A stretch of DNA of 64,000 nt from an uncultured Gammaproteobacteria bacterium (GCA_963701455.1 CAVPAE010000007.1:223761-287760), one strand, 5' to 3'; numbered from the stretch's first letter, positions 26,938 to 51,889 are shown. Made by a program: numbers and translations. Notes: generated by a model from the sequence alone, not told the origin.

Positions 26938-28553
26938 TCAGAAGTCAGCCCGGTAGCCCAGGTTAATAAAATAGCTGTTGCTCTCTTCAGAGCCATCAAC
27001 AATTTCGCGGTCCGAATATTCCCCCCCGATTTCGGCTTCCAGGCGCAGCCTGCGCTTGATCCGATAGTCCAGCCGCAGTGACGGGCGGTAGGTGATCTGG
27101 TCCGTGCCGTCATCCCGGTTATTGCTGTAATCCATTCTGAAGCGTGGGTTGACCCGAAATTCACTGGTGACGGGATATCGCGTATTTAAATTCAGGGAAT
27201 AGATATCCCTGTTGCCCGCATCGGAATAACGCAGACCTGCTATCGTAATATCACCCGGCTTTACCAGATTGCTTCCGACGAGTTGCAGGTTGTAAACAAA
27301 ATCGGTGCCTGTTCCATCCGTCGCCGCAACACCACCTGAAGCGCTGGTACCAGAAAGGTTAAATGCCGTGACATCACCGCTTACCTGCAGTTTTTCGGTT
27401 ATTGGATGCGACACGCCCAGGGTCGCAAGCTTGCTGGTTGCCGTGCGATCACGCGCCAGATCCTGAATTTCACTGGCTGCAAGGCTGTTCTGCAGCTCAT
27501 CGATTGAGCTGACAGCCTGGCCCACCAGCGCATTCCGGCTCGTAAGGATCGGACTCCTTCTGTAATCTGCGACCACGTTGACCGTGGTCTTGTCCGAGAA
27601 TGTCCAGTTCCCGAGCAGCTGCCCGATATTCAGTTCGTTGTAATGTATGTCGTAGTCGACGAGACTGAAAAACGAACGAGCGGCGTCAAAATATCTGAGC
27701 TCACCACCAACCGCACGACGATCTGTGATTCCATCCACCTGCTGCTCGATAACAAAGGCATTTGCATCCCACCCCTTCGCAAACCCTTCAGTCTCGAGAG
27801 TCAACCCATAGAAGTATCTGTCCGTACCTTCGAAAGCATCAGTCGATGATTCTACCGGGAATCCGCCAACCGCACTCACCGAGAACTTTTTGCCCAAAGG
27901 GACCCCCAGCAACAGGCCGTCAAAGCGCCCCAATACTCCTCCGGTACTGCGGGACTGTCGTCCGATTCGCATGGACATGTCGCTCTGTGTTGAGCTGGCA
28001 TCAAAGTACAGTCGAACTCACAGTGGTATCAGTGTTAGCACCGTCATCAATAAAGTCATGCAAATAGCCACCGGTAAAGCGGGCCTGTAGATTGTAGTCG
28101 CTACCGCGCAGCCGGGCAGTGACATCCATATTGCTGTCCAGAGATGACTGGGTCAGCGTCGTGAGTTCATTGTCATCATCAATATTGGTTGTATTCTCAT
28201 TACGCCGGTAGTACTGGGAAACTCCACCGAACACATCCCACTGCGACTCCGCTTCATTACGCGACTTGCTCCGGGTTGTGCCCAGTTTCTCCCTGGGCTG
28301 TTTTCTGGCAGTCATCAGGGCCGCAAAACGTTGTTTGACACGTTCAGCACCCTCTCCTTCCGGGTAACGCTCAAGATAAGTCCTGTATACCAGTTCTCGC
28401 CTGCGCCAGCTGGTCGTTGCGTTCACGGGCCAGTCCCAGGTATTCCAGGGAATCCTGGCTGTACTGGTTATCGGGCTGCTCCAGAATCTTGGTATATAGC
28501 CTGATTGCCCCGGCATAGTCCTTGTCGGTCATATTGTTACGCGCCTCCTGCAC
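26938..28553 (-). pseudogene. TPR-domain + outer-membrane beta-barrel protein, interrupted by at least 2 frameshifts (may merge with the upstream SPOR-like ORF)
   Basis: C-terminus ends ...GYRADF, an aromatic terminal residue typical of OM beta-barrels. Alternating beta-strand pattern throughout 26938-28516. A one-base shift near 28003-28020 joins ...SSTVL to FDASSTQSDMSMRIG.... A shift near 28385 joins ...LGLARERNDQLAQAR to RELVYRTYLERYPEG... (TPR). Confidence 0.55.
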
Positions 28554-29572
28554 CAGGGAAGCAAGTCGCTCCGGCGTGACAACATTGCCCGCAGCAACTT
28601 CACGCGGAACAACGACTGCAGACGCGTAGTCGCCTCTGGTTGGGCTGTTGTGCCCGCACCGGATCCGGACAGGTTACCGGCGAGCATGGATTCACCGGAA
28701 CGGGTCCTTTCTGCTACTGATGCTTTGGCAACCCAGGAATCCGGGTAATAGGCCTTGAGTTCTTCCCTGACAATATCTGCTTGCTGCACCTTCCTGAAAA
28801 ACCCGAATCGCAGCCGGTACCATGTCTTGCCGTCCTTGACAAAGGTGGTGGTGTAAACGCGATATGCCTGGGATTCACCAGGATCTGGCAAATCCATGAA
28901 TACTTCCGGATCAGGCAAATCATTTACCTCGAACGGCGTGACTGATGAGGCCAGATTAATAACATAAGGATAGAGCGTGGCAGTGGTCGCCGCCTCCACC
29001 GGGACTTCCGTATTGGCAGCAGTCGCTTCAGTCATGATCGCGACAGGTGTTGTCGAATCGCTATCAGGCCGGTTTCCCGGCCCCGCGTGAAGTACGTCTT
29101 CCACTGCAGACGCACCCGGATTTCCCCTGCTTTGCGGATGCTTTACAACTACATCGATGGTCCTGAAATCTCCTGAACGAGGTATCTCGAATTCCACCTC
29201 CTTCTGAAAGCGCAAGGTAATGCTTGTATTCGCGAATCCGGCGCCTTCGTAGGTCACGTCGTACAATGGCATATCTCTGTCCGGACTCCACTGTATCGTC
29301 TGCTCCCCCAGCAATGTATCCCCGGCAGAGCCGAGTGACGGGGCCGGTTCCACAAAGATGCGCAGCAGATCACCGGATCGTTCCGGCGCATGTGATTTGT
29401 AGCTCACCGGAATGGTAAGCCTGATATGGATAGTCGACTGATCCCGGCCAGGTGTGATATCGATGCTGTCGATAACATCAATGGCGGCCTGCGCTCCCGT
29501 AGTAACCGGCACACAACATATAACGCATAACAGCCGCGCGAACCTCGCCATGCCGTGAAATATATTTTTCAT
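28529..29572 (-). CDS. periplasmic protein with SPOR-like domain; 3' end uncertain (probable frameshift into TPR frame near 28640-28680)
   Basis: Signal peptide MKNIFHGMARFARLLCVICCVPVTTGAQA. SPOR-like segment KTWYRLRFGFFRKVQQADIVREELKAYYPDSWV. The alternative frame past 28680 reads protein-like (...VVVPREVAAGNVVTPERLASLVQEARNNMTDKDYAG...). Confidence 0.5.
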   Translation of the reverse strand: MKNIFHGMARFARLLCVICCVPVTTGAQAAIDVIDSIDITPGRDQSTIHIRLTIPVSYKSHAPERSGDLLRIFVEPAPSLGSAGDTLLGEQTIQWSPDRDMPLYDVTYEGAGFANTSITLRFQKEVEFEIPRSGDFRTIDVVVKHPQSRGNPGASAVEDVLHAGPGNRPDSDSTTPVAIMTEATAANTEVPVEAATTATLYPYVINLASSVTPFEVNDLPDPEVFMDLPDPGESQAYRVYTTTFVKDGKTWYRLRFGFFRKVQQADIVREELKAYYPDSWVAKASVAERTRSGESMLAGNLSGSGAGTTAQPEATTRLQSLFRVKLLRAMLSRRSDLLPWCRRRVTI

Positions 29573-30070: not shown

Positions 30071-33000
30071 TCAGAAATCGCTACTGGTTGTACGGTGCTC
30101 AGGCCCGGGGCGACGGTCCTTGATCGTCGTCATGCTGCTGTCCGTATACATATGACAGCTTCCCGAACAGTCCCTCAACTCGCTGACACTGTAGGTCGTA
30201 TCGGGATTCTCGTATTTCTTGTGTGCGCTCTGCTTGAAATCATTCGCATGACACGCTGCACAATCCGGCACATACGCAGGTGCCGACCAGTTCACTACCT
30301 CACTGTTTGCCTGGTGACACGCAGTACAGAGAAGATTACTTCTGTGGTCTCCCGGATATGACGCCGAGGTATGCTGGAAATCCAGTGGCACCCAGTAAGA
30401 CGTCGTATGACATGCGTCGCACTGTAAACTGGTGACGAAGTGCCCGCCGGGCTTGCCGGTTGCCGTTGTACCGTTATGACAATTCGAGCATGAACCCGTG
30501 ACTTGGTCGTGATTAAAGCTGGCCGGCAGCCATGCGATAGTCGAATGGCATTCATCGCATTGCGCCGACGTGATGACATGTCCGGATGGCTTTCCGGTTG
30601 AGGTAACCCCGTTGTGGCAGGTAGTACATGTTCCGGGGGTCACATTGGCATGATCGAATACCGCCGGCAGCCAGGCGCTCGTGCTGTGACAGTCATCGCA
30701 GGTGTTGTTGCTGGCGATGTGGTTGACCGACTTGCCGGGCGCCGTGCTGCCATCGTGGCAGCTGAAGCAGGTCCCCAGCACGTCGGCATGGTCCACCCGG
30801 GTCACCGGTAGCCAGGCGCTCGTGCTGTGACAGTCATCGCACAGCGCCGTGGTCTGGATATGGGTACTGTTCTTGCCCGTGGCCGTGGTGCCGTCGTGGC
30901 AGCTCGCGCAGTTGCCGCTCACCGTGCTGTGATCGAAGGTCGCCGGTAGCCAGGCGCTCGTGCTGTGACAGTCATCGCAGGTGTTGTTGCTGGCGATGTG
31001 ATTGGCCGTCTTGCCGGGCGCCGTGCTGCCATCGTGGCAGCTGAAGCAGGTCCCCAGCACGTCGGCATGGTCCACCCGGGTCACCGGCAGCCAGCTACTG
31101 GTGCCGTGGCAGTCCTCGCACAACGCCGTGGTCTGGATGTGGGTCGGGTTCTTGCCCGTGGCCGTGGCACCGTCATGACAGCTCGCGCAGTTGCCGCTCA
31201 CCGTGCTGTGATCGAAGGTCGCCGGCAGCCAGGCACTCGTGCTGTGACAGTCATCGCAGGTGTTGTTGCTGGCGATGTGGTTGACCGACTTGCCGGGCGC
31301 CGTGCTGCCGTCGTGGCAGCTGAAGCAGGTCCCCAGCACGTCGGCATGGTCCACCCGGATCACCGGCAGCCAGCTACTGGTGCCGTGGCAGTCCTCGCAC
31401 AACGCCGTGGTCTGGATGTGGGTCGGGTTCTTGCCCGTGGCCGTGGCACCGTCATGACAGCTCGCGCAGTTGCCGCTCACCGTGCTGTGATCGAAGGTCG
31501 CCGGCAGCCAGGCACTCGTGCTGTGACAGTCATCGCAGGTGTTGTTGCTGGCGATGTGGTTGACCGACTTGCCGGGCGCCGTGCTGCCATCGTGGCAGCT
31601 GAAGCAGGTCCCCAGCACGTCGGCATGGTCCACCCGGGTCACCGGGATCCAGCTGCTGGTGCCGTGGCAGTCCTCGCACAGCGCCGTGGTCTGGATATGG
31701 GTACTGTTCTTGCCCGTGGCCGTGGTGCCGTCGTGGCAGCTCGCGCAGTTGCCGCTCACCGTGCTGTGATCGAAGGTCGCCGGTAGCCAGGCGCTCGTGC
31801 TGTGACAGTCATCGCAGGTGTTGTTGCTGGCGATGTGGTTGGCCGTCTTGCCGGGCGCCGTGCTGCCATCGTGGCAGCTGAAGCAGGTCCCCAGCACGTC
31901 GGCATGGTCCACCCGGGTCACCGGCAGCCAGCTACTGGTGCCGTGGCAGTCCTCGCACAACGCCGTGGTCTGGATGTGGGTCGGGTTCTTGCCCGTGGCC
32001 GTGGCACCGTCGTGACAGCTCGCGCAGTTGCCGCTCACCGTGCTGTGATCGAAGGTCGCCGGTAGCCAGGCGCTCGTGCTGTGACAGTCATCGCAGGTGT
32101 TGTTGCTGGCGATGTGATTGGCCGTCTTGCCGGGCGCCGTGCTGCCATCGTGGCAGCTGAAGCAGGTCCCCAGCACGTCGGCATGGTCCACCCGGGTCAC
32201 CGGCAGCCAGCTACTGGTGCCGTGGCAGTCCTCGCACAGCGCCGTGGTCTGGATATGGGTACTGTTCTTGCCCGTGGCCGTGGTGCCGTCGTGGCAGCTC
32301 GCGCAGTTGCCGCTCACCGTGCTGTGATCGAAGGTCGCCGGCAGCCAGGCGGTGGTGCTGTGACAGTCCTCGCAGGTCGCGGCACTGGGGATGTGGTTCG
32401 TACTCTTGCCGATGGCGGTGGCACCGTCGTGGCAGCTCACGCAGGTCCCCAGTACCTCGGCATGATCGACCTGGATCGCCGGCAGCCAGGCCGTCGTCTG
32501 GTGGCAGGCCTCGCAGATCGTCGTGGTCTGGATGTGGGTCGGATTCTTGCCGGTGGCCGCGGTGCCGTCGTGACAGCTCGCGCAGTTGCCGCTCACCGTG
32601 CTGTGATCGAAGGTCGCCGGTAGCCAGGCGCTCGTGCTGTGACAGTCATCGCAGGTGTTGTTGCTGGCGATGTGGTTCGCACTCTTGCCGATGGCGGTGG
32701 CACCGTCGTGGCAGCTCACGCAGGTCCCCAGCACCTCGGCATGATCGACCTGGATCGCCGGCAGCCAGGCCGTCGTCAGGTGGCAGGCCTCGCAGATCGT
32801 CGTGGTCTGGATGTGGGTACTGTTCTTGCCGGTGGCCGCGGTGCCGTCGTGGCAGCTCGCACAGTTACCGGTGACGTTGCTGTGGTCGAAGGTCGCCGGC
32901 AGCCAGGCGGTGGTGCTGTGACAATCCTCGCAGGTCGCGGCACTGGGGATGTGGTTCGTACTCTTGCCGATGGCGGTGGCACCGTCGTGGCAACTCACGC

Positions 33001-33808
33001 AGGTCCCCAGTACCTCGGCATGATCGACCTGGATCGCCGGCAGCCACGCCGTCGTCAGGTGGCAGGCCTCGCAGACCGTGCTGGTCTGGATGTGTGAGCG
33101 GCGCTTGCCCGTGGCAACGATGCCGTCATGGCAGCTCGAACAGGCACCAGTGATATTGGCATGGTCGAAACTCGCATTCGCCCAGGCGATGGTGGTATGG
33201 CAATCCTCGCAGGTATCGGCACTCGGAACGTGGTGATTCGACTTACCTGTGGCCGTAGCACCATCATGGCAACTTGAGCATGTAGCGGTAACATTACTGT
33301 GATCGAAGGTCGCAGTTGTCCAGGCAGTTGTGGTATGGCAGTCCTCGCAAGTATCGGCACTTGAGATATGATTGGTGGTCTTGCCGGTCGATGTTGATCC
33401 ATCATGACAAGTTGCGCAGGATCCAATAACTGCATCGTGACTCATGTTAGCCAGTGGTTTCCAGTACGCATCCGTATGACATTCTTCACAAACAAGGTTC
33501 GTCTGGATATGATCAGACGGCATCTTGTCTGCCGGCATCGAGCTGGCCTGGTTGTGACAAACCCCGCATTCAACCGGTGTTCCCTCAAATATTCCACGCA
33601 GGTGACAACTCGTACAGGGTGCATTTTTATGCGCGCCTTCAAGCGGGAATCCTGTAGAAAAATGATCAAACCCGGCATTGGTTCCGAGCGCCATCACACC
33701 ATGTGACAGCAAGAACAGGAAACAGACAAACAGGAACATAACAGTCGCAGGCCGGCGGATTTCCCTCGACCCGGCCATTGACATGGTGACTTGTTGTTTA
33801 GGCTTCAT
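30071..33808 (-). CDS. giant c-type cytochrome with about 50 heme-binding motifs (49 CxxCH + 1 CX3CH)
   Basis: Signal peptide ...FLFLLSHGVMA. My hand count gives 49 CxxCH plus CSGSCH near the C-terminus. About nine tandem 93-aa tetraheme modules, with one extra His per heme (FDHS, THIQ, VDHA, NHIA). Start taken at ATG 33808 (MKPKQQ); ORF ATG 33847 is an alternative. Confidence 0.85.
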   Translation of the reverse strand: MKPKQQVTMSMAGSREIRRPATVMFLFVCFLFLLSHGVMALGTNAGFDHFSTGFPLEGAHKNAPCTSCHLRGIFEGTPVECGVCHNQASSMPADKMPSDHIQTNLVCEECHTDAYWKPLANMSHDAVIGSCATCHDGSTSTGKTTNHISSADTCEDCHTTTAWTTATFDHSNVTATCSSCHDGATATGKSNHHVPSADTCEDCHTTIAWANASFDHANITGACSSCHDGIVATGKRRSHIQTSTVCEACHLTTAWLPAIQVDHAEVLGTCVSCHDGATAIGKSTNHIPSAATCEDCHSTTAWLPATFDHSNVTGNCASCHDGTAATGKNSTHIQTTTICEACHLTTAWLPAIQVDHAEVLGTCVSCHDGATAIGKSANHIASNNTCDDCHSTSAWLPATFDHSTVSGNCASCHDGTAATGKNPTHIQTTTICEACHQTTAWLPAIQVDHAEVLGTCVSCHDGATAIGKSTNHIPSAATCEDCHSTTAWLPATFDHSTVSGNCASCHDGTTATGKNSTHIQTTALCEDCHGTSSWLPVTRVDHADVLGTCFSCHDGSTAPGKTANHIASNNTCDDCHSTSAWLPATFDHSTVSGNCASCHDGATATGKNPTHIQTTALCEDCHGTSSWLPVTRVDHADVLGTCFSCHDGSTAPGKTANHIASNNTCDDCHSTSAWLPATFDHSTVSGNCASCHDGTTATGKNSTHIQTTALCEDCHGTSSWIPVTRVDHADVLGTCFSCHDGSTAPGKSVNHIASNNTCDDCHSTSAWLPATFDHSTVSGNCASCHDGATATGKNPTHIQTTALCEDCHGTSSWLPVIRVDHADVLGTCFSCHDGSTAPGKSVNHIASNNTCDDCHSTSAWLPATFDHSTVSGNCASCHDGATATGKNPTHIQTTALCEDCHGTSSWLPVTRVDHADVLGTCFSCHDGSTAPGKTANHIASNNTCDDCHSTSAWLPATFDHSTVSGNCASCHDGTTATGKNSTHIQTTALCDDCHSTSAWLPVTRVDHADVLGTCFSCHDGSTAPGKSVNHIASNNTCDDCHSTSAWLPAVFDHANVTPGTCTTCHNGVTSTGKPSGHVITSAQCDECHSTIAWLPASFNHDQVTGSCSNCHNGTTATGKPGGHFVTSLQCDACHTTSYWVPLDFQHTSASYPGDHRSNLLCTACHQANSEVVNWSAPAYVPDCAACHANDFKQSAHKKYENPDTTYSVSELRDCSGSCHMYTDSSMTTIKDRRPGPEHRTTSSDF
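30500..33050. repeat. tandem array of about nine 279-bp units (93-aa tetraheme modules) inside the 50-heme cytochrome gene, several copies near-identical at DNA level
   Basis: Identical antisense ORF peptides recur at 31260, 31539 and 31818 (279-bp spacing). 30965 and 32081 share peptide text 1116 bp (4 x 279) apart. This is coding, not a CRISPR array. Confidence 0.85.
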
Positions 33809-33861: not shown

Positions 33862-35445
33862 TTACCTGATTTCCACCACGTCAAACGATTCCGTCGTGTG
33901 GCAACGATCGCAATACTTCCCAAACTCTCCGTCATGCACATCCTCCTGGCGATGACAGGAAACACAGGTACCTGGCAGCCTGATTTCTCCTGTTATTTCC
34001 TCAACGTGACAGGACAGACAATCAATATCCTGATGCGCACCATCCAGTTCGTAATTCGTGTGAACGTTGTGTTCAAACTCCCACAAAGACCAGTCATTCG
34101 GGTTATGACACGACTCACAGCGCGGGCCCAAGCGGCGTTCATGCACATCATCCGGCTGATGACAAACATTGCATTCACGTGCCGCCTGTTTGTATGCCGA
34201 TGTCAGATGGCACTCCTCGCACGGGGTAACCGCATGCAAACCGAGAAGCGGGAAATCGGTCATATCGTGTTCGAAACGCACCTTCCCGCCCCAGCCATCC
34301 TCGTCATGGCATTTCTCACAACGCTTGCCCTCCTGGCCCTCGTGCACATCATCCGCTCCATGACAACTGAAACATTCCGTTGCAAGTTTTTCCTCGTAAA
34401 CCTCACCCCTGTGACAGGATGAGCAACTGGCTTCCTGATGCTTCCCGCGCAATGGAAACTCCGTTTCCCGATCATGCTCGTACTTCACCTTGTCCCAGCC
34501 ACGCGTGCTGTGGCAGGCCTGGCATTTATTCCCGTATCGGCCAGCGTGCTTGTCGTCACCGCGATGACAGTCGATACATTCCGTGCCCAGTGCCGTGTCA
34601 TACAGTTTCCCCACATGGCAGACATCGCACTTCACTTCCCGGTGACTTCCGGAAAGCGAATATCCCGTATCACGATCATGATCGAACCGGGAGCGGTCCC
34701 AGCCTGCCTCTGAATGACAGTCTTTGCATTTCTGCCCGTAACGACCGGCATGCACATCATTCAGCCTGTGGCAGGTATGGCATTCCCCGGGGATATCCTT
34801 GTATTTGTGATTGACGTGGCAACTGTCACAGGCCAGTTCTGCATGCTTTTCCCGAAGCACGAAATCCGTGTCGTCGTGGTTGAATTCCTGGCTGGTCCAA
34901 CTGCGCTCGGCATGGCAATCCGCACACTGCTCACCAAGCCTGCCTGCATGAATGTCGTCTCCCTCATGGCATGAGACGCACTCCTGCGGCGCATCGCGGA
35001 ATTTTTTCCCTTCAGCGTGGCAGGCTGCACAACGCGTCGCAATATGCGCACCCTTTAGCAAGTAATCCGTTTCATCATGTGCAAAGGTTTCAACATCCAG
35101 CTGGACTACGTCTGCATCGCGACCCTTGTGATCGCTATGGCAATGACTGCACTCTGCATTCCTTGCCACTCCCAACCCGTGGAAACCTGTCTGCTGCCGA
35201 ATATCTGCATCGACTTCCTCGTGACAGTCCCGGCACAGCATGCTTTGGCTCTCCTTGCTGAAGGGCTTGTGGCACTTTTCACACTCTTCCTCGTATTTCA
35301 TGTGCCCCTCTATCACCTGCCCCGGTTTGACCAGTGATTCGATTCCTGCAAACACAGTCGAACCGAAGCACATAGCCGCCACAAAGAGGGTGGCGGCAAT
35401 ACAAATCCGGTACCGTTTCACAGTGACTTTTCTTGCATGGGCCAT
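33862..35445 (-). CDS. 21-heme c-type cytochrome (7 x tri-heme repeat)
   Basis: Signal peptide MAHARKVTVKRYRICIAATLFVAAMCFGSTVFA. 21 CxxCH motifs in a repeating CxxCH-x~15-CxxCH-xxDDxHxGxxGxxCxxCH-x4-W-x5-FxH pattern. Its start shares one nucleotide with the upstream stop (TGATG at 35443-35447). Confidence 0.85.
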   Translation of the reverse strand: MAHARKVTVKRYRICIAATLFVAAMCFGSTVFAGIESLVKPGQVIEGHMKYEEECEKCHKPFSKESQSMLCRDCHEEVDADIRQQTGFHGLGVARNAECSHCHSDHKGRDADVVQLDVETFAHDETDYLLKGAHIATRCAACHAEGKKFRDAPQECVSCHEGDDIHAGRLGEQCADCHAERSWTSQEFNHDDTDFVLREKHAELACDSCHVNHKYKDIPGECHTCHRLNDVHAGRYGQKCKDCHSEAGWDRSRFDHDRDTGYSLSGSHREVKCDVCHVGKLYDTALGTECIDCHRGDDKHAGRYGNKCQACHSTRGWDKVKYEHDRETEFPLRGKHQEASCSSCHRGEVYEEKLATECFSCHGADDVHEGQEGKRCEKCHDEDGWGGKVRFEHDMTDFPLLGLHAVTPCEECHLTSAYKQAARECNVCHQPDDVHERRLGPRCESCHNPNDWSLWEFEHNVHTNYELDGAHQDIDCLSCHVEEITGEIRLPGTCVSCHRQEDVHDGEFGKYCDRCHTTESFDVVEIR

Positions 35446-36413
35446 CAGTACATGTGCACGGCATACACATGGACAAGACCGGCAATCAAAAGCATGATGA
35501 AGAGAGGCAGATGGAGAACGTGCCACATGGAAAACAACCGCTCGAAGAATGAAAAGCCGGCCACCTTGCGGACCGTATACAGGTATGTGCGCAGGTAATA
35601 CCCTGCCTTGCGGTAATAATAGCGGCGTTGCTCTCGAGTCAGTCTCTCGCGAACAATCGGTGTCCTGAAGAATCGGCGCAACTCCAGCAGGGATACCAGC
35701 AGGCACCAGCGTGATCTGATGTTGATCACCAGCATACTGACCAGGCAAGAGAGAAAGCCGTTTTGGGTTGCCACCGCCTTGTCTTCAATACGCTGCAGCC
35801 GGACCTTCATTCCCGGCATTTCCTTGAAGACGGGTCCGAGTTCCGCCATGGCCATTGCTGTATCGCTGCCCAGATCCTCAAGATCTGCTTTTCGGCCATA
35901 CAGACCGTAGTGGACTTTTGAATATATAAATCTGCCGATCAGGCCACTGCCGGCAACCAGCAGCATACTGAACAGGGCGACATTCCCGTTTATGGAACCG
36001 AGCTGGAAGTTACAATGCAGGAGAATACAAACAGGCCCCAGGATACCCAGCAACATGTGCCCCCTGAACCAGTGGCGCACCGGTCCGAAGCCCTGTGCCC
36101 AGCGCGCATGCTTGCGTAGCGGATACAGCATGAGCAACAGCATCATCGTGCCTCCTGTTATACCAAGGGCATAACCGATACCTAGCTCCGGTGTGAGATA
36201 AAGGTAACTGCCATACTTCCATCCGCAATACACAAGCAGCAGGACCAACAGGTGGAAGACCGGTAACTCCGGAACCCGGGAAGACCTCTCACGTCCCTCA
36301 TTATCCCGTTTGATAATGGGTTCATTTGCAGGGTCCTGAGGGTATCCCGCGACGCCTGCGGCTTGAGTTATCGAGTTCTTGTCAATATCAAAAACAGTCT
36401 GTACTTCACTCAT
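35445..36413 (-). CDS. polytopic membrane protein with conserved His in TM helices; putative b-type cytochrome / quinol-interacting subunit
   Basis: About 6 TM helices. His residues sit in TM1 (FHLL), TM3 (HWFRGHMLLG...LLHCNF) and TM6 (MWHVLHLP...LVHVYAVHMY). Translationally coupled to the 21-heme gene. Start at MSEVQ (36413); ATG 36503 is an alternative. Confidence 0.5.
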   Translation of the reverse strand: MSEVQTVFDIDKNSITQAAGVAGYPQDPANEPIIKRDNEGRERSSRVPELPVFHLLVLLLVYCGWKYGSYLYLTPELGIGYALGITGGTMMLLLMLYPLRKHARWAQGFGPVRHWFRGHMLLGILGPVCILLHCNFQLGSINGNVALFSMLLVAGSGLIGRFIYSKVHYGLYGRKADLEDLGSDTAMAMAELGPVFKEMPGMKVRLQRIEDKAVATQNGFLSCLVSMLVINIRSRWCLLVSLLELRRFFRTPIVRERLTREQRRYYYRKAGYYLRTYLYTVRKVAGFSFFERLFSMWHVLHLPLFIMLLIAGLVHVYAVHMY

Positions 36414-36766
36414 TACCGCCCCCGTTCCCCAGGATGTACAAACACCGCAATATCTGTACCTGCATATCGGACCTGCAGCGAAAGTTCTCAACCAGCCAGG
36501 CAACCCAGAAATACGTATCCGGAGGGGCTCTCATGCTTGAGAAATTCCATAACCCACTGCTTTTACTAGTGAATACACTGCACCACAGAACATAAACACA
36601 GAATCACACAAATGTGACGGACTTCACTATTTGGGAGGATATTCCCATTTGTTGATATACTATGCAACATTCAATTACAGGATTGCCGATGCAGTCACAC
36701 AACAGAAAAGCTTTCAGAAAACATAATTCACATGCGAGCACAGAACCCGCGTACAGGTAGACACCG

Positions 36767-38068
36767 ATGACCGATACCGCACTTTATTTCTATCTGACCC
36801 CGATGCTGTTCATCTGGGGCATTTACTATGGATTTCGCACCAGGAGGCATCGCCGCGCCACCCGCTTGCGCGATGACGCACAAAAGTCCGGTCTTCTGGC
36901 TCCGGCATCACTCCACCCCGTGATAGATTCATGCCGCTGCCTGGGTTGTCGGTCCTGCGTAAGCGCCTGCCCGGAAAAATCAGTACTGGGAATTATTGAT
37001 AGCAAATCCGTGCTGGTCAGCCCTGCCAACTGCATCGGGCACGGCGCATGCAAAACCGCCTGCCCGATGAACGCAATCACACTGGTGTTTGGCACATCCG
37101 AACGCGGCGTCGATATTCCACTGGTTGCTCCCGACTACGAGACCAATGTTCCCGGTCTTTTTATTGCCGGAGAACTGGGCGGGATGGGGCTGATTCGCAA
37201 CGCCGTTGAACAGGGCCGTCAGGCAATGGCATCCATCATCGAGCACTGTCGGAAGGGAAACAGGCAGGAACTGGATGTCGTAATCGTCGGCGCCGGACCC
37301 GCGGGTCTTTCAGCCAGCCTGGCCGCACAGGAAAGCGGCCTGCGCTACGCAACACTCGAACAGGATTCTCTCGGGGGAACGGTATCCCATTTCCCGCGAG
37401 GAAAAATTGTCATGACAGCTCCTGTAAAGCTACCCCAGGTCGGCACAGTTAAATTCAGGGAGATATCCAAGGAAGCACTGCTGGAATTCTGGGAGGACGT
37501 CATCAGGAAGACAGGCGTGCAGATCATATTCAGGGAACGCGTTGAAGCCATCACGCCTCTTGCAGGAGGACTAGAAGTCAGGACTCCCGGGAATGTCTAT
37601 CGCACCAAATGCGTCCTGCTCGCGATTGGCCGGCGCGGCACACCGCGCAAGCTGGATGTGCCTGGCGAAGAATCAACAAAAGTCGTCTACCGGCTGATAG
37701 ATCCAGAGCAATACCGCAATCAGAAAGTACTGGTTGTCGGGGGTGGAGACAGCGCCCTGGAGGCCGCGATAAGTATTGCCGAGCAGCCCGGCACGGATGT
37801 CAGCCTGTCTTATCGCAGCGCTGCATTTTCCCGCGCCAAGGAAAAGAACCGGCAGAAGATTGATGACTTGAACAATTCAGGCCGCTTGAAAGTCTTCCTG
37901 AATTCCACGGTCAGCGAAATACATGAGAACAGGGTAGAAATAGACCAGCAAGGCAACATGATTGATATCGGGAATGATGCCGTGATCGTCTGTGCCGGTG
38001 GCATTTTACCTACACCCTTCCTGAAAGAAATCGGCGTCGAGGTGGAAACAAAATATGGCACGCAGTAA
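36767..38068 (+). CDS. membrane-anchored 4Fe-4S ferredoxin-domain + FAD/NAD(P)-binding pyridine nucleotide-disulfide oxidoreductase-like protein
   Basis: N-terminal TM helix. Two Cys clusters (CRCLGCRSCVSACP and CIGHGACKTACP). Two Rossmann GxGxxG motifs (VVIVGAGPAG, VLVVGGGDSA). Confidence 0.7.
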   Translation: MTDTALYFYLTPMLFIWGIYYGFRTRRHRRATRLRDDAQKSGLLAPASLHPVIDSCRCLGCRSCVSACPEKSVLGIIDSKSVLVSPANCIGHGACKTACPMNAITLVFGTSERGVDIPLVAPDYETNVPGLFIAGELGGMGLIRNAVEQGRQAMASIIEHCRKGNRQELDVVIVGAGPAGLSASLAAQESGLRYATLEQDSLGGTVSHFPRGKIVMTAPVKLPQVGTVKFREISKEALLEFWEDVIRKTGVQIIFRERVEAITPLAGGLEVRTPGNVYRTKCVLLAIGRRGTPRKLDVPGEESTKVVYRLIDPEQYRNQKVLVVGGGDSALEAAISIAEQPGTDVSLSYRSAAFSRAKEKNRQKIDDLNNSGRLKVFLNSTVSEIHENRVEIDQQGNMIDIGNDAVIVCAGGILPTPFLKEIGVEVETKYGTQ

Positions 38069-40145
38069 GACGATTACCGGATTCTGCAGCCACGGACCGT
38101 TATTACGCTCCTGTTCAGCCATTGCTGCATGTCTGCTGTTTGCCTGCCTCTTCGCACCATCTGCCGCCGCCACCGGGGAGTTTGATGAAATACGCGCCGC
38201 CATCCGGGTGCGTGACTTTGGAAAGGCCATCCCCCTGCTTGAAACCCTGGCAAGCTCGGGCAACCCCGACGCCCAGTATCAACTTGCCGCCTTGTATCGC
38301 GCAGGCTCCGGCGTTGCAAAGGATCACGAAACCGCATTTTACTGGCTGGACAAGGCCGCACACCGGAATCACAGGCAGGCCCAGTACAACCTGGGCGTTA
38401 TGTATGAATATGGATGGGGAACGCTGGCAAGCGCGGCAGCTGCAGCCGACTGGTATGAAAAGGCCGCCGCACAGGGCCACCCGATGGCGCAGGAAAAGCT
38501 TAACGAGAGTGATATAGCCGCACGCCGCACAAGAGATAATACGCGGCCTGGCGAAGCACCCGACCCGGACCTGTTACTGCGGCGGGCCGTGACAAGGGGC
38601 GATGCGCGGTCGGCCAGTGAAGCCATCAAGGCCGGCGCCAATGTGGATGCAACTGACAAATACGGCAGAACCGCGCTCATTGATGCCGCCGAACAGGGAT
38701 TTACTGAAATCGTCGAGCTGTTGATAAGCAATAATGCCGACATCAACCACGAGGATGCCTATCGCAACAGCGCACTGCTCCTGGCAACCGGCAATGGCCA
38801 TTCCGATACGGTCAGGAAACTGCTCACTGCCAATGCAGACAGCAACGCCACGGACACAAATGGCAACACCCCGTTGATGATCGCGAGTGGAAGGAATGAT
38901 GTAGAGATTGTCCGGGCATTGATAGCACAGGGCGCACGCCTTTACGGGAAAAACACCACGGGTGATTCTGCCGCTGATATCGCGGCCCGCAAGCGGCATG
39001 CTGAGATACTGAAAATCCTGCAGGCGCGTGGCGCCAATCCTGAAAAGCATTTTGCCCAGAAGAAGGCGACGATCGCCAAACGCCTTGCCATGCAGAATCC
39101 TGACCCGGCATCCGGATCCGGTGGCAAGGAATCATCACAGCCATATGCAGGCTGGTCAGCGCTGATGGAGTCTGCCTGGCGCGGCCAGGAAGAAATCGTC
39201 CGGGAACTGCTGGACCGGGGCGTCGATATCAATAGCAGGGATGATCAGGGCCACACTGCCCTGACGCGCGCAGCCAGCAAGGGGAACAGCAAGATTGTGC
39301 AGCTGTTACTGGAAGCCGGCGCCGATACCGGTGTCACCCGTGACGATGGCATGACCTTGCTCATGCTGGGCACTGCATCGGGTGATGCCGACACGGTCAC
39401 GTTGCTGCTTGCAAGGGAGCGCAATATCAACGCAAGGGATACCGATGGTTGCACTGCCCTCTGCTACTCGGTCCGCAACGGTGACACGGATATTGCCAGC
39501 CTGCTGTTGCAGCATGGTGCCGACAGCAACCTGGCTCTGAATGACGGCAGGACGGTCCTGATGCTGGCGGCTGAAATGGACACACCGGAGATACTGGCTC
39601 TGCTGCTCGCAAACGCACCCGCGGTCAACCAGCCGGACAAGACCGGCCTGACTGCCTTGTCATACGCGGTTATCAAGGGACACGAAAAGAATGCGCGCAT
39701 GCTGCTGGAGCATGGCGCGAAGCCAAACATCAGCGACTCGAAAAAGCGCACCCCGCTTACGCTTGCCGCCACGGGTAAAAACACAAATATTGTCGACCTG
39801 CTGATCAAGCACCGGGCTGACATCGCAACAAGCACCAGCGATGGTAATACGCCGCTTATTCTTGCAGCCAATTCCGGGAATACTGCCATCGCCGGCCGTC
39901 TGATAAAAGCAGGAGCAGATATCAATGTGCGCAACAATAATGGAAACACAGCCCTGATGCTTGCTGCCGCAAACAATCATGTCGACATCGTCAGGATCCT
40001 GCTGGAAACCGGCGCCAGGGCGGGAATCAGGAACAACAATCGCAAAAGCGCCAGCGACCTGGCCGAGGCCTCGGGAAATACGGAAACACTTGCCGTCCTT
40101 GAAAAGCACCGCAGTAGCGGGCTATGGTCATCCAGCTGGTTCTGA
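38055..40145 (+). CDS. secreted Sel1-repeat + ankyrin-repeat (about 15 ANK) protein
   Basis: Signal peptide. Sel1-like units (AQYQLAALYRAGSGVAKD, AQYNLGVMYEYGWG). Then repeated G.TALM.AA..G...IV..LL..GA..N units through the C-terminus. Overlaps the upstream gene by 14 nt. Confidence 0.8.
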   Translation: MARSKTITGFCSHGPLLRSCSAIAACLLFACLFAPSAAATGEFDEIRAAIRVRDFGKAIPLLETLASSGNPDAQYQLAALYRAGSGVAKDHETAFYWLDKAAHRNHRQAQYNLGVMYEYGWGTLASAAAAADWYEKAAAQGHPMAQEKLNESDIAARRTRDNTRPGEAPDPDLLLRRAVTRGDARSASEAIKAGANVDATDKYGRTALIDAAEQGFTEIVELLISNNADINHEDAYRNSALLLATGNGHSDTVRKLLTANADSNATDTNGNTPLMIASGRNDVEIVRALIAQGARLYGKNTTGDSAADIAARKRHAEILKILQARGANPEKHFAQKKATIAKRLAMQNPDPASGSGGKESSQPYAGWSALMESAWRGQEEIVRELLDRGVDINSRDDQGHTALTRAASKGNSKIVQLLLEAGADTGVTRDDGMTLLMLGTASGDADTVTLLLARERNINARDTDGCTALCYSVRNGDTDIASLLLQHGADSNLALNDGRTVLMLAAEMDTPEILALLLANAPAVNQPDKTGLTALSYAVIKGHEKNARMLLEHGAKPNISDSKKRTPLTLAATGKNTNIVDLLIKHRADIATSTSDGNTPLILAANSGNTAIAGRLIKAGADINVRNNNGNTALMLAAANNHVDIVRILLETGARAGIRNNNRKSASDLAEASGNTETLAVLEKHRSSGLWSSSWF

Positions 40146-40247: not shown

Positions 40248-41318
40248 TTATGCTGGCTGAAGCTGCGCGATCGGCATGGAAGCGCGAATTGTTGTCCCTT
40301 CTCCATCTCCACTGGACATGGATATTTTCCCATCGACGAGTTCAATTCGTTCCCTCATACCACCGAGCCCCGCTCCCCTGAGAGAATCGTCTACAGACAG
40401 AGCGTCCTCAAGACTGAACCCGACCCCGTTATCCTGCACGGTCAATTCCAGAAAGTCGTTTATCCTGTGCAGACTGATGAGGACCTGATCTGCCTTGCTG
40501 TGCCGGGCCACATTGTTAAGTGCTTCCTGCACTACCCTGTAGACCACGACCTTCAGATTGTCCGCTATCTCGTCATCAGTTATTACAATGTCGCTGTGAA
40601 CCTGGATACCCGGATTGGCATCCTGAAAATCGCGCCGTAACCAGGTAAGTGTCGCCGAAAGGCCCAGATCATCCAGCATGGATGGCCGCAATCGCATGTA
40701 GATATTACGTACTTCCTCAATAGTCTCCTGAACAACAGGAACAAGAATCCTCGACATTTCAGCAGGGTTCAATGCTTCGTCAACCGATTCGTGCAGGGCG
40801 TGCTCAATCCTGAACTTCATCGCAACCAGTGTCTGGCTTACATTGTCATGGAGATCCTTCGCGATCCTGCGTCTTTCATTTTCCTGTGCGGCCAGCAATT
40901 GCGCCGAGAGCAGGCGCAGTTCTTTATCGGATTTACGTAACGCCTCTTCTGTTTGAGCCTGTTCTGCAATTGCATTTTCAAGTTTCTTGTTGGTATCAAG
41001 CAATTCCCGGGTACGATCCTGCACTCGATGTTCAAGATTGTCGTATGCCCGGGTCAAGGCCTCTCTTGCCTGATCGGCGTCGTTCATACTGACAAAAGCC
41101 AACCTGGCTGGAATTATCAGCGCGACCGTTGTGAAAATCAGTGTAGTGACAACATATTCCCAGCGCTCGTATAACGGCTCTGGGTGATAAAACTCGTAAA
41201 TGTGTGGTACCACCAGATCCTCAAGGTAAAACTCCCAGAAAGCACACAGCAACGTCACTCCTGCCAGGATCAGCAGAAACAGCAACATGAGGCCTCCAAG
41301 GCGACTTCTCACTGCCAC
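40248..41318 (-). CDS. membrane sensor histidine kinase, HisKA_3 (NarX/DesK-like) type
   Basis: Two N-terminal TM helices. H-box LHDNVSQTL after LAAQENERRRIAKD. HATPase_c at the C-terminus. No response regulator is adjacent. Confidence 0.8.
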   Translation of the reverse strand: MAVRSRLGGLMLLFLLILAGVTLLCAFWEFYLEDLVVPHIYEFYHPEPLYERWEYVVTTLIFTTVALIIPARLAFVSMNDADQAREALTRAYDNLEHRVQDRTRELLDTNKKLENAIAEQAQTEEALRKSDKELRLLSAQLLAAQENERRRIAKDLHDNVSQTLVAMKFRIEHALHESVDEALNPAEMSRILVPVVQETIEEVRNIYMRLRPSMLDDLGLSATLTWLRRDFQDANPGIQVHSDIVITDDEIADNLKVVVYRVVQEALNNVARHSKADQVLISLHRINDFLELTVQDNGVGFSLEDALSVDDSLRGAGLGGMRERIELVDGKISMSSGDGEGTTIRASMPIAQLQPA

Positions 41319-42233: not shown

Positions 42234-42917
42234 TCAAAGTAAAGAAGGATCTCTCCGGGGATCGGTCTGTCTTGTCAATGCCTGGTATTCACGCACCAGG
42301 TCACCGGCACTCGCAAAACCCTCCATGCGAACCCAGCCTGTTTGCGGTGCAGCATGCATGAATGTCAACGGTATGTGATTCATCTTGTCGCGCCGGTATG
42401 CATCAAAAGCTTTCAGCACCGCCACGATGTCTTCACGATCCCCGGTCAGAAACGTCCAGCCTGTGCTGGCCTGGAAACGCTGCGCATATTCCCGAAGTTT
42501 TGCCGGAGTATCATGCTCAGGATCGATGGTAACTGAGATCATTCGAACATTATCCGCTTCAGGACCAAGGGCCTTCCGGGTCTGGGTAAAGCTGGCACTC
42601 AGGACCGGACAGATAGTTGTGCACGTGGTAAATATAAAATTCAGCATCACCGGCTCATTACCCTCCAGCATGTCGTGCAGGGAAACCTTCCTGCCGTCCT
42701 GATCGGTCAGTACGACATCGGGCACCTGGTATTCCTGTTCCTTGCGGACATAGCCCTTTTGCTGCAGCATCTGCCTGTGCTGCGAATGATCAACTCCATG
42801 CTGGTGCATATGGTGGGCAGCATCTCCGTCATCCAGGGCATGACCGGACGATGCCATGCCGAACGTAACCAGCAGGCCCATCATCCTGCCCGCAAACCTT
42901 ATTTTGTTATTCAGCAT
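42234..42917 (-). CDS. SCO1/SenC-family thioredoxin-like copper chaperone
   Basis: Membrane anchor, His-rich stretch (HHMHQHGVDHSQH), CxxxCP motif (FTTCTTICP), DPEHDT motif. Start at MLNNKIRF (42917). Confidence 0.8.
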   Translation of the reverse strand: MLNNKIRFAGRMMGLLVTFGMASSGHALDDGDAAHHMHQHGVDHSQHRQMLQQKGYVRKEQEYQVPDVVLTDQDGRKVSLHDMLEGNEPVMLNFIFTTCTTICPVLSASFTQTRKALGPEADNVRMISVTIDPEHDTPAKLREYAQRFQASTGWTFLTGDREDIVAVLKAFDAYRRDKMNHIPLTFMHAAPQTGWVRMEGFASAGDLVREYQALTRQTDPRRDPSLL

Positions 42918-42985
42918 GTCGTATTCTCCTTTTGTAATAACGTCCCTGCTTGTTGATATTCCCCGCGGCAGAGCCACAGCCGCTT

Positions 42986-44919: not shown

Positions 44920-46596
44920 CTAGCGACACGCCCGGTTCTTGCGGCAGCCTGAATCAAGACAATCGACAAGCCCGTCACCGTCGTTGTCGAGACTGTCAGA
45001 GCATGTGCCGCCCTTGCCTTCCACACCACCGCCAGTGCCACCCCCACCGGTGTCACCGCCTCCGTCACCTCCGGGGACCGGGCAGGACTTACCTTTCAGT
45101 CTGTCCTTACCGTCGCAGTCCTGGTCGATGCCGTCCCGCTTGATATCGCAGGCATCGGGGTTGATAGCGGCGTTGCTGTCATCACAGTCCGGTAACGTTC
45201 CGCAGTTTAACTCGGCATAGAAATTATCACTGTCGTTATCCGTACATGGGGGGGGCGGCGGATTGCTCAGCAGAGCGGATGCCGCGACCACGTCGACCAG
45301 TCCGAAACCGGAGTCGTTATCCGCACCGGCCTGGCCGATGTCCATGGCTGAATCCTGCAGGGATTGTTCGAGTTCGGCCACGCTGACACCGGGAAAGGCA
45401 CCGCGCAGCAGTGCCAGCGCGCCCGCGACATGCGGCGCGGCGGCTGAAGTGCCGCTCACGGACACATAGGAATCCGGGAACAGTCCACCGGAGGTCAGGT
45501 CCGCTGTCCTGACGTTCACACCGGGCGCGACCACTTCCGGATACAGGGTCCCGCTACAGGCCGATGGTCCGCGCCCGCTGGTCGAGGCGATGTTCAGCGC
45601 AGCGTCTACGGCGCCAACCGCGAAACCATCTGGATTATTGGCCGGGCTTTCACTGGATGACCCTGACGGCCCCTTGTTACCGGCGGAAAATGCCACGGCA
45701 ATACCGGCAGCCTTGAGTACCTGAATATCTGTCTCGAATTCCAGGTAACACTGATCCAGCAGTTGCGGGAATCCCCAGGAATTATTGACCACGTGCGGCG
45801 CATCATCACTCGCCGGGTTGCCGTCGGGATCCAGCAGCCATTGGAACCCCTGGTGAATGCCGCTCAGCGAGGCTGTCCCGCTGTCGTCAAAGATCTTCAC
45901 CGCGATCCACTGCGCGCCGGGCGCCACGCCGATTGCCGTACCCCCGGCATCTCCACCAACCGCCAGTCCCATGACCTGGGTTCCATGACCATTCCTGTCA
46001 TGGGGTGAGGCATGCTCGCCATTGGGATCGAACCAGCTGTTGTTACCGCCACGCCAGCGAGGAGCCAGGTCCGGATGGTTCACATCAACCCCGGTGTCCA
46101 TACCCGCCACAACCATACCGGTTCCGGTGTAGCCCAGCCCCCAGAACTCCGGTGCACGTATTGCATCGAGATTCCACTCCGATGTCGTGGCGGTCGCCGC
46201 TGCCGGCGCCGGAGCCTGGACACTGGCATCAAGCGTAATACTGTCCACCCCCGGAAGTCCGAGTAACGGCTGAATGACATCCGCCCTGGCCGTCACAGCA
46301 AGGGCATTGATCGACCATAACTGAATGAGCCGTTTTGCCCCGTTCCCCTGCAGGAAGGCGATGGCTGGTCCCTGGCTGGCATTCGCCGTATTCCGCAAGG
46401 CCTGGATCAGCGCTGCCAGTTCGACACCCCTGCCCTGCCCCTTCCCTGGGAATGCCTCCAGATCCACACGTTCGGAAAATCTGACAATGAATGCCACATC
46501 TTTCCCGTCCTGGATGGCTTGTTGCACTTCCGCTGTCATGGTGGCGGCCTGCACTCCTGGCCCCCATGCGGAAACGCAGACCATGCCAAACAGCAG
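44920..46596 (-). CDS. subtilisin-like serine protease (S8) with C-terminal Cys/Asp-rich DxDxDG module
   Basis: Catalytic triad contexts: VAGMDTGVD (Asp), HGTQVMG (His), GTSAAAPHVAGA (Ser). The C-terminus has ...DIKRDGIDQDCDGKD..., a Gly-rich run and further Cys. The start is uncertain: the ORF 5' end (MRRNDGSGLVQ) is encoded by repeat C, so GTG about 46596 or ATG 46575 are more likely. Confidence 0.8.
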   Translation of the reverse strand: MLFGMVCVSAWGPGVQAATMTAEVQQAIQDGKDVAFIVRFSERVDLEAFPGKGQGRGVELAALIQALRNTANASQGPAIAFLQGNGAKRLIQLWSINALAVTARADVIQPLLGLPGVDSITLDASVQAPAPAAATATTSEWNLDAIRAPEFWGLGYTGTGMVVAGMDTGVDVNHPDLAPRWRGGNNSWFDPNGEHASPHDRNGHGTQVMGLAVGGDAGGTAIGVAPGAQWIAVKIFDDSGTASLSGIHQGFQWLLDPDGNPASDDAPHVVNNSWGFPQLLDQCYLEFETDIQVLKAAGIAVAFSAGNKGPSGSSSESPANNPDGFAVGAVDAALNIASTSGRGPSACSGTLYPEVVAPGVNVRTADLTSGGLFPDSYVSVSGTSAAAPHVAGALALLRGAFPGVSVAELEQSLQDSAMDIGQAGADNDSGFGLVDVVAASALLSNPPPPPCTDNDSDNFYAELNCGTLPDCDDSNAAINPDACDIKRDGIDQDCDGKDRLKGKSCPVPGGDGGGDTGGGGTGGGVEGKGGTCSDSLDNDGDGLVDCLDSGCRKNRACR

Positions 46597-46617
46597 CAGA
46601 ATCACCTTGAGGAGAAA

Positions 46618-46784
46618 CTGAACAAGTCCTGATCCGTCATTCCGGCGCATGCCGGACAAAAGTGCATGGCGCGTTGAACGCCCGGAGGGCGGCCCGCAGG
46701 GCGAGCGAAGCGAGTCATCCAGGGAAATCAACAAGCTGGACCCCGGCCTTCGCCGGGGTGACGACTTATTCAGGGTTTCCTTGA
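46618..46784 (+). repeat. ~167-bp interspersed repeat family C, full copy
   Basis: Direct repeat of 44743-44908. The two copies flank the protease gene. Confidence 0.85.
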
Positions 46785-46804
46785 GCTTCAGGCTTTTCAT
46801 GGCA

Positions 46805-50540: not shown

Positions 50541-50568
50541 GGACTTATCCCCCGGTTCCGGTCTGTTG

Positions 50569-51828: not shown

Positions 51829-51889
51829 TGGTCTATCCTCCTGTGTGCCCCGGGGTGGAGGCATCCCACCCCGGAACGCTAGCCCTTGG

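Follow-up and report, generated by a model that had tools for sequence, protein, structure and literature searches.

An oxidoreductase and a Sel1/ankyrin-repeat protein encoded beside the PCC3 porin-cytochrome cluster: apparently undescribed companions of a widespread, putative extracellular electron transfer system

The gene pair and the divergent cytochrome operon

The stretch of DNA analysed here, hereafter the window, comprises 64,000 nt from an uncultured Gammaproteobacteria bacterium (GCA_963701455.1 CAVPAE010000007.1:223761-287760; all coordinates are counted within the window), and the subject of this work is a pair of genes encoding a membrane-anchored ferredoxin-flavoprotein oxidoreductase (OXR) and a protein composed of Sel1 and ankyrin (ANK) repeats. 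The two open reading frames (ORFs) called in the initial annotation are both present on the plus strand, at 36767-38068 (ATG start, 433 aa) and 38055-40145 (ATG start, 696 aa), and the overlap claimed for them is exactly 14 nt. The same overlap of -14 was found by crude ORF calling in 9 further loci, and a Shine-Dalgarno-like GAGGTGG lies inside the OXR gene at 38039-38045, 9 nt before the second ATG. The gap that separates the pair from a divergently transcribed cytochrome operon (36414-36766, 353 bp) is AT-rich, as had been stated, with a GC content of 0.43 against 0.52-0.60 in its flanks. The features of the locus are collected in Table 1.

As judged from its gene content and motifs, the divergent operon is a PCC3 cluster, that is, a porin-cytochrome c gene cluster of four genes (He et al. 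2017, Front Microbiol 8:1584; PMC5566968). The inner-membrane protein (IMP) of such clusters is defined by about 300 aa, five transmembrane (TM) segments, two WX3HX13H motifs on TM3 and TM5 and an SGXXG motif on TM4 (He et al. 2017; PMC5566968). The window contains a porin-type gene, a large multihaem cytochrome (MHC) rich in T, S and A and with 49 CXXCH motifs, a 21-haem MHC, and an IMP with both histidine motifs and SGXXG, and it differs from the published four-gene cluster in that the latter includes neither OXR nor the Sel1/ANK protein, and in that the porin gene of the window is frameshifted. The 527-aa MHC has a signal-like N-terminus and Pfam matches to Cytochrome_C7, its 21 haem motifs being equal to the published PCC3 median, while the 1245-aa MHC is repetitive (T 14%, S 11%, A 10%). 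The stop codon of the IMP gene and the start of the 21-haem MHC gene share 1 nt at 35445, which suggests translational coupling inside the operon. The porin-type protein is a homolog of a 700-930-aa protein (cluster 4 of the ORF clustering) which adjoins the MHCs in 40 loci, and a SPOR domain was its only Pfam match. In L002, the closest genome relative, the porin gene is also in two pieces. Between the porin and the large MHC genes there is a small ORF of about 163 aa (29626-30030, minus strand), which has counterparts in at least 8 loci and lies outside the published description of PCC3. Its product shares approximately 30% identity with the porin in the N-terminal region of the latter.

Table 1. 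Features of the locus; nucleotide positions are those of the window, residue positions those of the protein concerned.
Feature	Nucleotides	Residues	Strand	Basis or remark
PCC3 porin-type gene, frameshift-split near 28012	26941..29542		-	ortholog alignment
PCC3 large extracellular-type MHC, 1245 aa, 49 CXXCH, 25 aa per haem	30071..33808		-	motif count
PCC3 periplasmic MHC, 527 aa (from MAHARK), 21 CXXCH	33862..35445		-	motif count
PCC3 IMP, 322 aa, putative di-haem b, no Pfam family	35445..36413		-	motifs, hydropathy
Divergent intergenic/promoter region	36414..36766		.	GC 0.43
Leader of the IMP operon, conserved, non-coding	36414-36500			alignment with five relatives
CRP/FNR-family-like site TGTGA-CGGACT-TCACT	36613..36628		.	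conservation
Palindrome TGGGA-GGATAT-TCCCA, candidate operator	36632..36647		.	conservation
Motif of the initial annotation, core ACTATGCAAC	36649-36674			directly after the palindrome; partly conserved in 5 close relatives
OXR, membrane-anchored ferredoxin-flavoprotein, 433 aa	36767..38068		+	Pfam, NCBIfam, ortholog alignments, fold searches
OXR anchor helix	36776-36835	4-23	+	hydropathy
OXR basic stalk, then invariant P46-x-S-L-H50-P51				ortholog alignment
OXR ferredoxin domain	36914-37087	50-107	+	C58xxC61xxC64xxxC68P and C89xxH92xxC95xxxC99P
OXR permuted FAD motif ETNVPGLFIAGELGG	37136-37183	124-139	+	
OXR TrxR-fold FAD/NAD(P) domains	37274-38047	170-427	+	GxGxxG 175-180, GGGDSA 325-330, Y349-R350...F354-x-R356
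Sel1/ANK protein, 696 aa	38055..40145		+	Pfam, repeat count, ortholog alignment
Signal-peptide-like N-terminus	38055-38171	1-39	+	
TPR-like unit and 2 Sel1 repeats	38172-38480	40-142	+	
ANK block 1, 5 repeats	38553-39047	167-331	+	
Variable linker		332-361	+	
ANK block 2, 10 repeats	39138-40127	362-691	+	
Short hydrophobic C-terminal tail	40128-40142		+	
Downstream neighbours: kinase, SCO1/SenC, subtilase, multicopper oxidases	40248-41318, 42234-42977, 44920-46839, 49266-52230		-	

Linkage of the pair to PCC3 across genomes

Scanned at one genome per species, GTDB yielded at least 587 species representatives with a relative of OXR, and the best 80 loci were examined. In these, OXR shares 57-79% identity with that of the window and has a length near 433 aa, the hosts belonging to the Gamma-, Alpha- and Betaproteobacteria, the Myxococcota and the Nitrospiria; Bradyrhizobium sp. 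STM 3843 and Amphritea, both named by He et al. (2017), recur among them. Clustering of the ORFs revealed a typical layout, with porin, large MHC, 21-haem MHC and IMP on one strand and OXR and ANK on the other. PCC3 MHC or IMP genes were found in all 25 well-flanked loci (those with at least 6 kb on both sides of OXR), 23 of which also contained the ANK gene, and this gene directly follows OXR in 49 of 63 loci. The association also holds in the opposite direction: when loci were seeded with IMP (43 metagenome contigs with at least 2.5 kb upstream), OXR was present in 37 and ANK in 35, and OXR accompanied every IMP with at least 50% identity (19/19).

Moreover, the linkage resists rearrangement. 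Betaproteobacterial loci have OXR beside PCC3 and lack ANK, and in a locus encoding the OXR of the cultured Sulfuritalea hydrogenivorans (L166:7561-11296) IMP, MHC and OXR are co-directional on one strand, again without ANK. The IMP of this locus is 36% identical, with its motifs intact, and the operon adjoins a different outer set of NHL-repeat protein, porin and MHC (Uet-like). Since it is kept both in the Betaproteobacteria without ANK and in this rearranged Sulfuritalea-type locus, the pairing of IMP with OXR is, on the evidence of the loci compared, the most robust link of the locus. The earlier suggestion of an NAD(P)H-linked partner of the cytochrome conduit is thus borne out as a conserved genomic association (25/25 and 37/43 loci, in rearranged orders too), and the OXR-ANK pair very probably belongs to PCC3; the role of "regulator", offered at the same time, found no support.

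It could be argued that these genes are mere syntenic or chance neighbours, OXR being a generic ferredoxin-NADP reductase or thiol reductase and the ANK protein having nothing to do with the cytochromes. In fact, the source records carry unspecific labels ("thioredoxin reductase", "NAD(P)-binding domain-containing protein"), and a few OXR loci have no PCC3 genes on the sequence available. However, a linkage that holds in both directions, in several proteobacterial classes and through rearrangements largely refutes this explanation, as do the matches to named families, which are all below cut-off, and the lack of CxxC described in the following section, so that it is considered extremely improbable. 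As for the searchable literature, neither an OXR flavoprotein nor an ankyrin protein was found to be tied to PCC3 in the PCC3 papers or by full-text search, and in the Allochromatium vinosum pyrite transcriptomics and the Tenderiales Uet papers the content was not relevant or the gene pair was absent. The pair would apparently represent widely conserved, undescribed companions of PCC3.

The membrane-anchored oxidoreductase

Domain searches returned Fer4 and Pyr_redox matches for the first gene, and Sel1 and Ank matches for the second. In OXR, the Fer4 dicluster covers residues 50-106 and the Pyr_redox_3/Pyr_redox_2 matches residues 170-427 (E-values of 3e-41 and 2e-24). The thioredoxin reductase (TrxR)-like FAD/NAD(P) fold anticipated in the initial annotation is confirmed by the latter matches, by phmmer against the PDB (best with 7a76, E 3e-25) and by Foldseek, where the OXR model matched YpdA/Bdr, thioredoxin reductases and TrxR-type ferredoxin-NADP reductases (E 5e-20). 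In the alignments of 22 and 71 orthologs, the nucleotide-binding motifs G175-A-G-P-A-G180 and G325-G-G-D-S-A330 are invariant, and little or no variation is seen in the segment Y349-R350...F354-x-R356, which would resemble the NADPH-binding HRRxxxR region of TrxR.

The "two 4Fe-4S Cys clusters" previously announced were only half right: the first motif is indeed all-Cys, but in the second a histidine, H92, invariant in 71/71 orthologs, replaces the second cysteine, and the ligand set of the ferredoxin domain thus consists of 7 Cys and 1 His. The full 2x[4Fe-4S] ferredoxin pattern (two CxxCxxCxxxCP) is missed, and the Fer4 profiles match nonetheless. The second cluster could be either a 3Fe-4S or a His-ligated 4Fe-4S centre. 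Ferredoxins with CXXHXXC(X)nCP cluster motifs have reportedly been described, and these, together with the His-ligated distal [4Fe-4S] cluster of hydrogenases, share with OXR the histidine in place of the second cysteine; in OXR, unlike in those ferredoxins, the motif lies in a fused, membrane-anchored enzyme.

The flavoprotein part is unusual in its order. The segment ETNVPGLFIAGELGG (residues 124-139) matches the C-terminal FAD motif of TrxR/YpdA yet precedes GxGxxG, as seen by phmmer and by comparison with an approximate E. coli TrxB sequence, and the Pyr_redox_2 profile ends at position 253 of 291, the match stopping at residue 427, six residues short of the C-terminus. Because the FAD motif comes before GxGxxG and the profile match stops early near the C-terminus, the flavoprotein is circularly permuted. 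In addition, no CxxC occurs in the flavoprotein part (residues 165-433) in any of the 71 orthologs, and the only cysteines of that region (161, 282 and 409) are not conserved, so that OXR should not be a disulfide reductase.

A housekeeping identity (TrxR, AhpF, YpdA or ferredoxin-NADP reductase) was considered and rejected, as all matches are below cut-off and CxxC is lacking. Assignment to such a family had been named as the outcome that would contradict the proposed link with the conduit, and the best NCBIfam scores lie far under the cut-offs (YpdA, TIGR04018, 156.6 against 339.9; TrxR, 79.8 against 343). The enzymes YpdA/Bdr and the TrxR-type ferredoxin-NADP reductases (7a76, 3ab1, 3lzw) are the best sequence and structure matches of OXR and have the same fold of two dinucleotide-binding domains; the latter enzymes, like OXR, have no redox-active disulfide and are paired with a ferredoxin module. 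Nevertheless, those enzymes are soluble, whereas the ferredoxin of OXR is fused and membrane-anchored, its scores are far below cut-off, and the C-terminal FAD "GD" motif sits before GxGxxG and reads GE.

The Sel1/ankyrin protein and cytochrome maturation

The Sel1 and ankyrin repeats claimed for the second gene were recovered well above cut-off (Sel1, 61.8 bits against 30.7, in two stretches; Ank, 270 against 21.1; Ank_2, 299 against 27.3; E 1e-90 for Ank/Ank_2). There are 2-3 Sel1 repeats and, as had been counted, fifteen ankyrin units, each of 33 residues and 9 of them fitting the strict ANK pattern; the best-conserved part of the protein is the Sel1 region. The N-terminus consists of an n-region with R/K, a hydrophobic core at residues 19-33 (Kyte-Doolittle, KD, above 2) and then SAAA/TG, and an equivalent hydrophobic N-terminus stands just ahead of the Sel1 part in 46 aligned orthologs. 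Given this basic n-region, the hydrophobic core followed by AAA/T and the equivalent segment in the orthologs, export to the periplasm is likely. The C-termini of the orthologs are mostly short and hydrophobic or aromatic (LFGIF, FLGLF, WLPNWF), following a basic linker rich in Lys and Gly, and this tail may serve as a docking peptide. A function as host-interaction effector or in defence (Legionella Dot/Icm Ank, MzaA) was discarded, the matches being at repeat level and far below cut-off (MzaA, 201 against 800; AnkY, 186 against 600) and the protein being linked to PCC3.

The known protein that comes closest is AnkB, encoded by katB-ankB in Pseudomonas aeruginosa, a periplasm-facing ankyrin protein whose gene is transcribed together with that of a redox enzyme, and for which a supporting role towards a haem protein has been proposed. 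AnkB differs in being small, with about 4 repeats and no Sel1 part, while the protein of the window has 2-3 Sel1 and around 15 ANK repeats and is linked to MHCs; homology between them is at the repeat level only. Another explanation for the pair is a role in the maturation or assembly of very large MHCs, outside the working electron path. OXR would then provide reductant for the handling of haem or apocytochrome alongside Ccm, and the ANK protein would serve as a periplasmic chaperone or scaffold. In P. aeruginosa, the haem enzyme KatB reportedly reaches its full activity only with AnkB; conservation of the ANK protein is highest in its Sel1 part; and 12 of the 25 well-flanked loci have ccm genes (ccmA, B, C, E, F, G, H and I-like) next to OXR-ANK. 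But a thiol-reduction relay would be impossible for an OXR without CxxC, and OXR stays beside IMP where both ccm and ANK are absent (betaproteobacterial loci, L166). System I maturation is not known to need an enzyme of the kind of OXR, and adjacency to ccm may merely reflect the demand of a system of 21 to 60 haems. All in all, a maturation role for both proteins is regarded as quite unlikely. Loci with ccm neighbours include L005, L008, L013, L017, L037, L053, L068, L073 and L079.

The inner-membrane end of the conduit

The TM helix attributed to OXR holds across its orthologs (median KD 2.07; the segment is uncharged in 58 of 70), though the copy in the window is only moderately hydrophobic. 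The helix is followed by RTRRHRRATRLR, and since 8 K/R fall within the 22 residues after it, the positive-inside rule would place the N-terminus outside and the catalytic domains in the cytoplasm (N-out, C-in). Aromatic residues are kept in the anchor helix (Y9 in 65/71, Y20 in 59/71 and W17 in 37/71 orthologs) and the linker that leads from the helix to the ferredoxin domain carries an invariant PxSLHP. These features exceed the needs of a passive anchor, which suggests a specific protein partner.

As to IMP, its motifs W115-FRG-H119-x13-H133, S156-G-L-I-G160 and W297-HVL-H301-x13-H315 are invariant or nearly so among 25 homologs. Hydropathy gives five clear TM segments and a marginal one, and the K+R content is 5 in the loop 96-117 and 25 in the loop 160-298, against 0-1 in the periplasmic loops. 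By the positive-inside rule, since the loops rich in K+R are on one side, IMP is predicted to be N-in and C-out with 5 TM, H119 and H301 being near the cytoplasmic face and H133 and H315 near the periplasmic one.

NOX and ferric reductases combine six TM helices, two stacked b haems and a cytosolic FAD/NADPH domain, and MsrQ, an FRD-type membrane protein, is served by a separate flavoprotein, the flavin reductase Fre. The window shows a comparable order of components, from NAD(P)H through flavin and two bis-His b haems (here putative, as deduced from the motifs) to an acceptor on the outer side, and the His pairs of IMP, H119/H133 and H301/H315 on TM3 and TM5, have a 13-residue spacing, within the 12-14 residues typical of NOX/FRE. 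On the other hand, IMP has no detectable sequence or fold similarity to Ferric_reduct/NOX and is not a member of that family; OXR combines a TrxR fold with a ferredoxin domain in place of an FNR-like domain, the genes are separate and divergently transcribed, and the acceptor would be a multihaem cytochrome wire and not O2, Fe(III) or MsrP. The likeness of IMP to the TM domain of ferric reductase/NOX had already been pointed out when PCC3 was described, where IMP was modelled as quinone-active (He et al. 2017; PMC5566968).

On these grounds it is proposed that OXR is the cytoplasmic NAD(P)H module of IMP in a split, NOX-like transmembrane electron path, with the Sel1/ANK protein as a periplasmic scaffold or assembly factor, a reading to which we give an even chance of being right. 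OXR would be held in the inner membrane by its single N-terminal helix, with the catalytic part in the cytoplasm, where electrons would pass from NAD(P)H (probably NADPH) to FAD and on to two Fe-S clusters, one with His in its motif. OXR would dock on IMP, with its 5 TM and bis-His motifs on TM3 and TM5 for two putative b haems, and the five segments of IMP plus the helix of OXR would give 6 TM and a cytoplasmic dehydrogenase, resembling NOX/ferric reductase and built from two polypeptides. The onward path, independent of quinones, would lead from the two b haems to the 21-haem periplasmic MHC and then to the porin and the 49-haem outer MHC. Electrons would flow outward, from NAD(P)H to an extracellular acceptor, a direction favoured because it is thermodynamically easier; that PCC3 is not induced by Fe(II) in Sideroxydans agrees with it as well. 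The Sel1/ANK protein, by association, would be the scaffold or assembly factor of PCC3 in the periplasm.

Several observations weigh against this proposal. Ferric_reduct (PF01794) was not detected by Pfam in IMP even at E-values up to 10, DUF4405 being the only match (E of about 1); the IMP profile retrieved nothing relevant from the PDB; and the low-confidence model of IMP (pLDDT 65) gave no significant fold in Foldseek, NOX/FRD proteins being absent from the matches. With the model poor and both fold and profile searches empty, it is the motifs that carry the FRD analogy. The OXR model is itself moderate (pLDDT 74, TM-scores 0.3-0.5), and its helix in the window is only weakly to moderately hydrophobic (KD 1.26 over 17 residues). 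Furthermore, no OXR lies within 6 kb of IMP in 6 of the 43 IMP-seeded loci, some OXR loci on short contigs are without PCC3 genes, as already mentioned, and the ccm neighbours fit maturation too. In the porin of the window, the intact 869-aa ortholog aligns with residues 11-512 in frame -1 and 513-869 in frame -2, the break lying near 28012; the gene may be a true pseudogene, or an error may have arisen in sequencing or assembly. The OXR-IMP complex is a proposal made from sequence, and the quinone-active IMP of He et al. remains compatible with the data.

This last point corresponds to an explanation in which the pair does belong to PCC3 and acts through the quinone pool, OXR being an NDH-2-like NAD(P)H:quinone oxidoreductase with Fe-S clusters and IMP a quinol/quinone-active cytochrome b, co-regulated and forming no single complex. 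Flavoproteins of the Pyr_redox_2 fold include type-II NADH:quinone reductases, and gene linkage with a shared promoter fits equally well, as does the published quinone-active model of IMP (He et al. 2017; PMC5566968). Nevertheless, a ferredoxin domain with invariant ligands between anchor and flavoprotein would be superfluous for flavin-to-quinone transfer, the conserved aromatics of the anchor and the invariant PxSLHP suggest a specific protein partner, and the IMP-OXR pairing survives both the exchange of the outer-membrane set and the rearrangement of gene order. A path through the quinone pool is accordingly held to be unlikely.

The direction of flow could also be the reverse, with the same complex running inward: a donor outside the cell or in the periplasm would supply electrons that reach OXR by way of the MHCs and IMP and there reduce NAD(P)+ or a ferredoxin, in support of autotrophy. 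PCC3 was originally put forward for electron uptake (He et al. 2017; PMC5566968), and many of the hosts resemble chemolithoautotrophs (Thiodiazotropha, Sedimenticola, Ectothiorhodospiraceae, Thiohalobacter-like, Sulfuricaulis, Sulfuritalea). However, transfer from the positive to the negative side, from a donor at the Fe(II) level to NAD(P)+ at -320 mV, would be strongly uphill with no evident coupling site, and members of the OXR family are found as well in Bradyrhizobium, Jannaschia and Hyphomicrobium, which resemble heterotrophs. Against it stands, moreover, the expression in Sideroxydans ES-1, where growth on Fe(II) lowered the expression of the two PCC3 clusters (PMC8788666) and no induction was seen on magnetite. 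Inward operation thus seems very unlikely, and the outward path through OXR and IMP is preferred.

The shared regulatory region and the surroundings

The idea that both operons share a regulatory region is in agreement with the conserved blocks found within the gap, which was aligned with that of five relatives whose OXR is 87-96% identical to that of the window. Three blocks, the IMP leader, the CRP-like site and the palindrome, are conserved around a variable middle. A 2-nt indel that one relative carries in 36414-36500 shows the leader to be non-coding and rules out an upstream TTG start for IMP at 36503. In the CRP-like site, GTGA-N6-TCAC is invariant in the 5 close relatives, and a site with at least 9 of 10 positions occurs in 16 of the 72 regions upstream of OXR, compared with 113 of 1720 background windows. 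The arms of the palindrome are invariant and its spacer variable in the same relatives, and 12 of the 71 loci, distant lineages included, have a perfect palindrome within the stretch 80-200 nt ahead of OXR, against 9 of 1640 background windows. The motif highlighted in the initial annotation, with its core ACTATGCAAC, does exist, directly after the palindrome, but it is only partly conserved and was set aside as key element, its neighbours, the palindrome and the CRP-like site, being better conserved.

The Rfam scan of the gap gave a sub-threshold chance match only, and no sigma-70 consensus promoter was found in it; the "terminator-like" match at 36632-36647 is the conserved palindrome. Inspection of the gap by eye found neither an FNR box (TTGAT-N4-ATCAA) nor a sigma-54 -24/-12 element. 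A sigma-54-dependent NtrC-type response regulator is encoded upstream of the PCC3 cluster (24986-26356, plus strand) and a HisKA_3 sensor kinase downstream of the ANK gene (40248-41318, minus strand), the latter being kept in the close relatives L082, L083 and L085; in L166, a HisKA kinase and a sigma-54 response regulator follow IMP-MHC-OXR. Other downstream genes encode an SCO1/SenC copper chaperone, a subtilase with a MopE-like Cu-binding motif and two multicopper oxidases and, going by these predicted products, the region downstream of the ANK gene is a metal-redox neighbourhood.

Concluding remarks

PCC3 is widespread, in iron oxidisers, sulfur-oxidising symbionts, marine sediment Gammaproteobacteria and rhizobia, yet it has been without a demonstrated function since 2017, and its link to the inner membrane has only been guessed at. 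A conserved NAD(P)H-FAD-FeS partner beside IMP shifts the working model, since it suggests reducing power directed outward. A bolder reading, which has somewhat less than an even chance of holding as a whole, is that the inner-membrane end of PCC3 would be a split NOX-like module, made of the 5-TM, di-haem-b IMP and a one-helix NAD(P)H-FAD-2FeS enzyme, quinone-free and with a periplasmic Sel1/ANK scaffold, and that PCC3 would not be, or would not only be, a quinone-linked conduit for Fe(II) oxidation.

In practical terms, OXR suggests a simple assay, namely the NAD(P)H-dependent reduction of the haems of IMP and the MHCs, while OXR and ANK provide two extra marker genes for finding PCC3. Starting from the operator-like palindrome, the regulator could be sought and, through it, the inducing condition. 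If the split NOX-like path is true, electrons from cytoplasmic NAD(P)H would have a compact, quinone-free way out to electrodes or minerals, which would interest bioelectrochemical engineers. Hundreds of proteobacterial species would in that case possess a new class of entry/exit module at the inner membrane, serving extracellular electron transfer.

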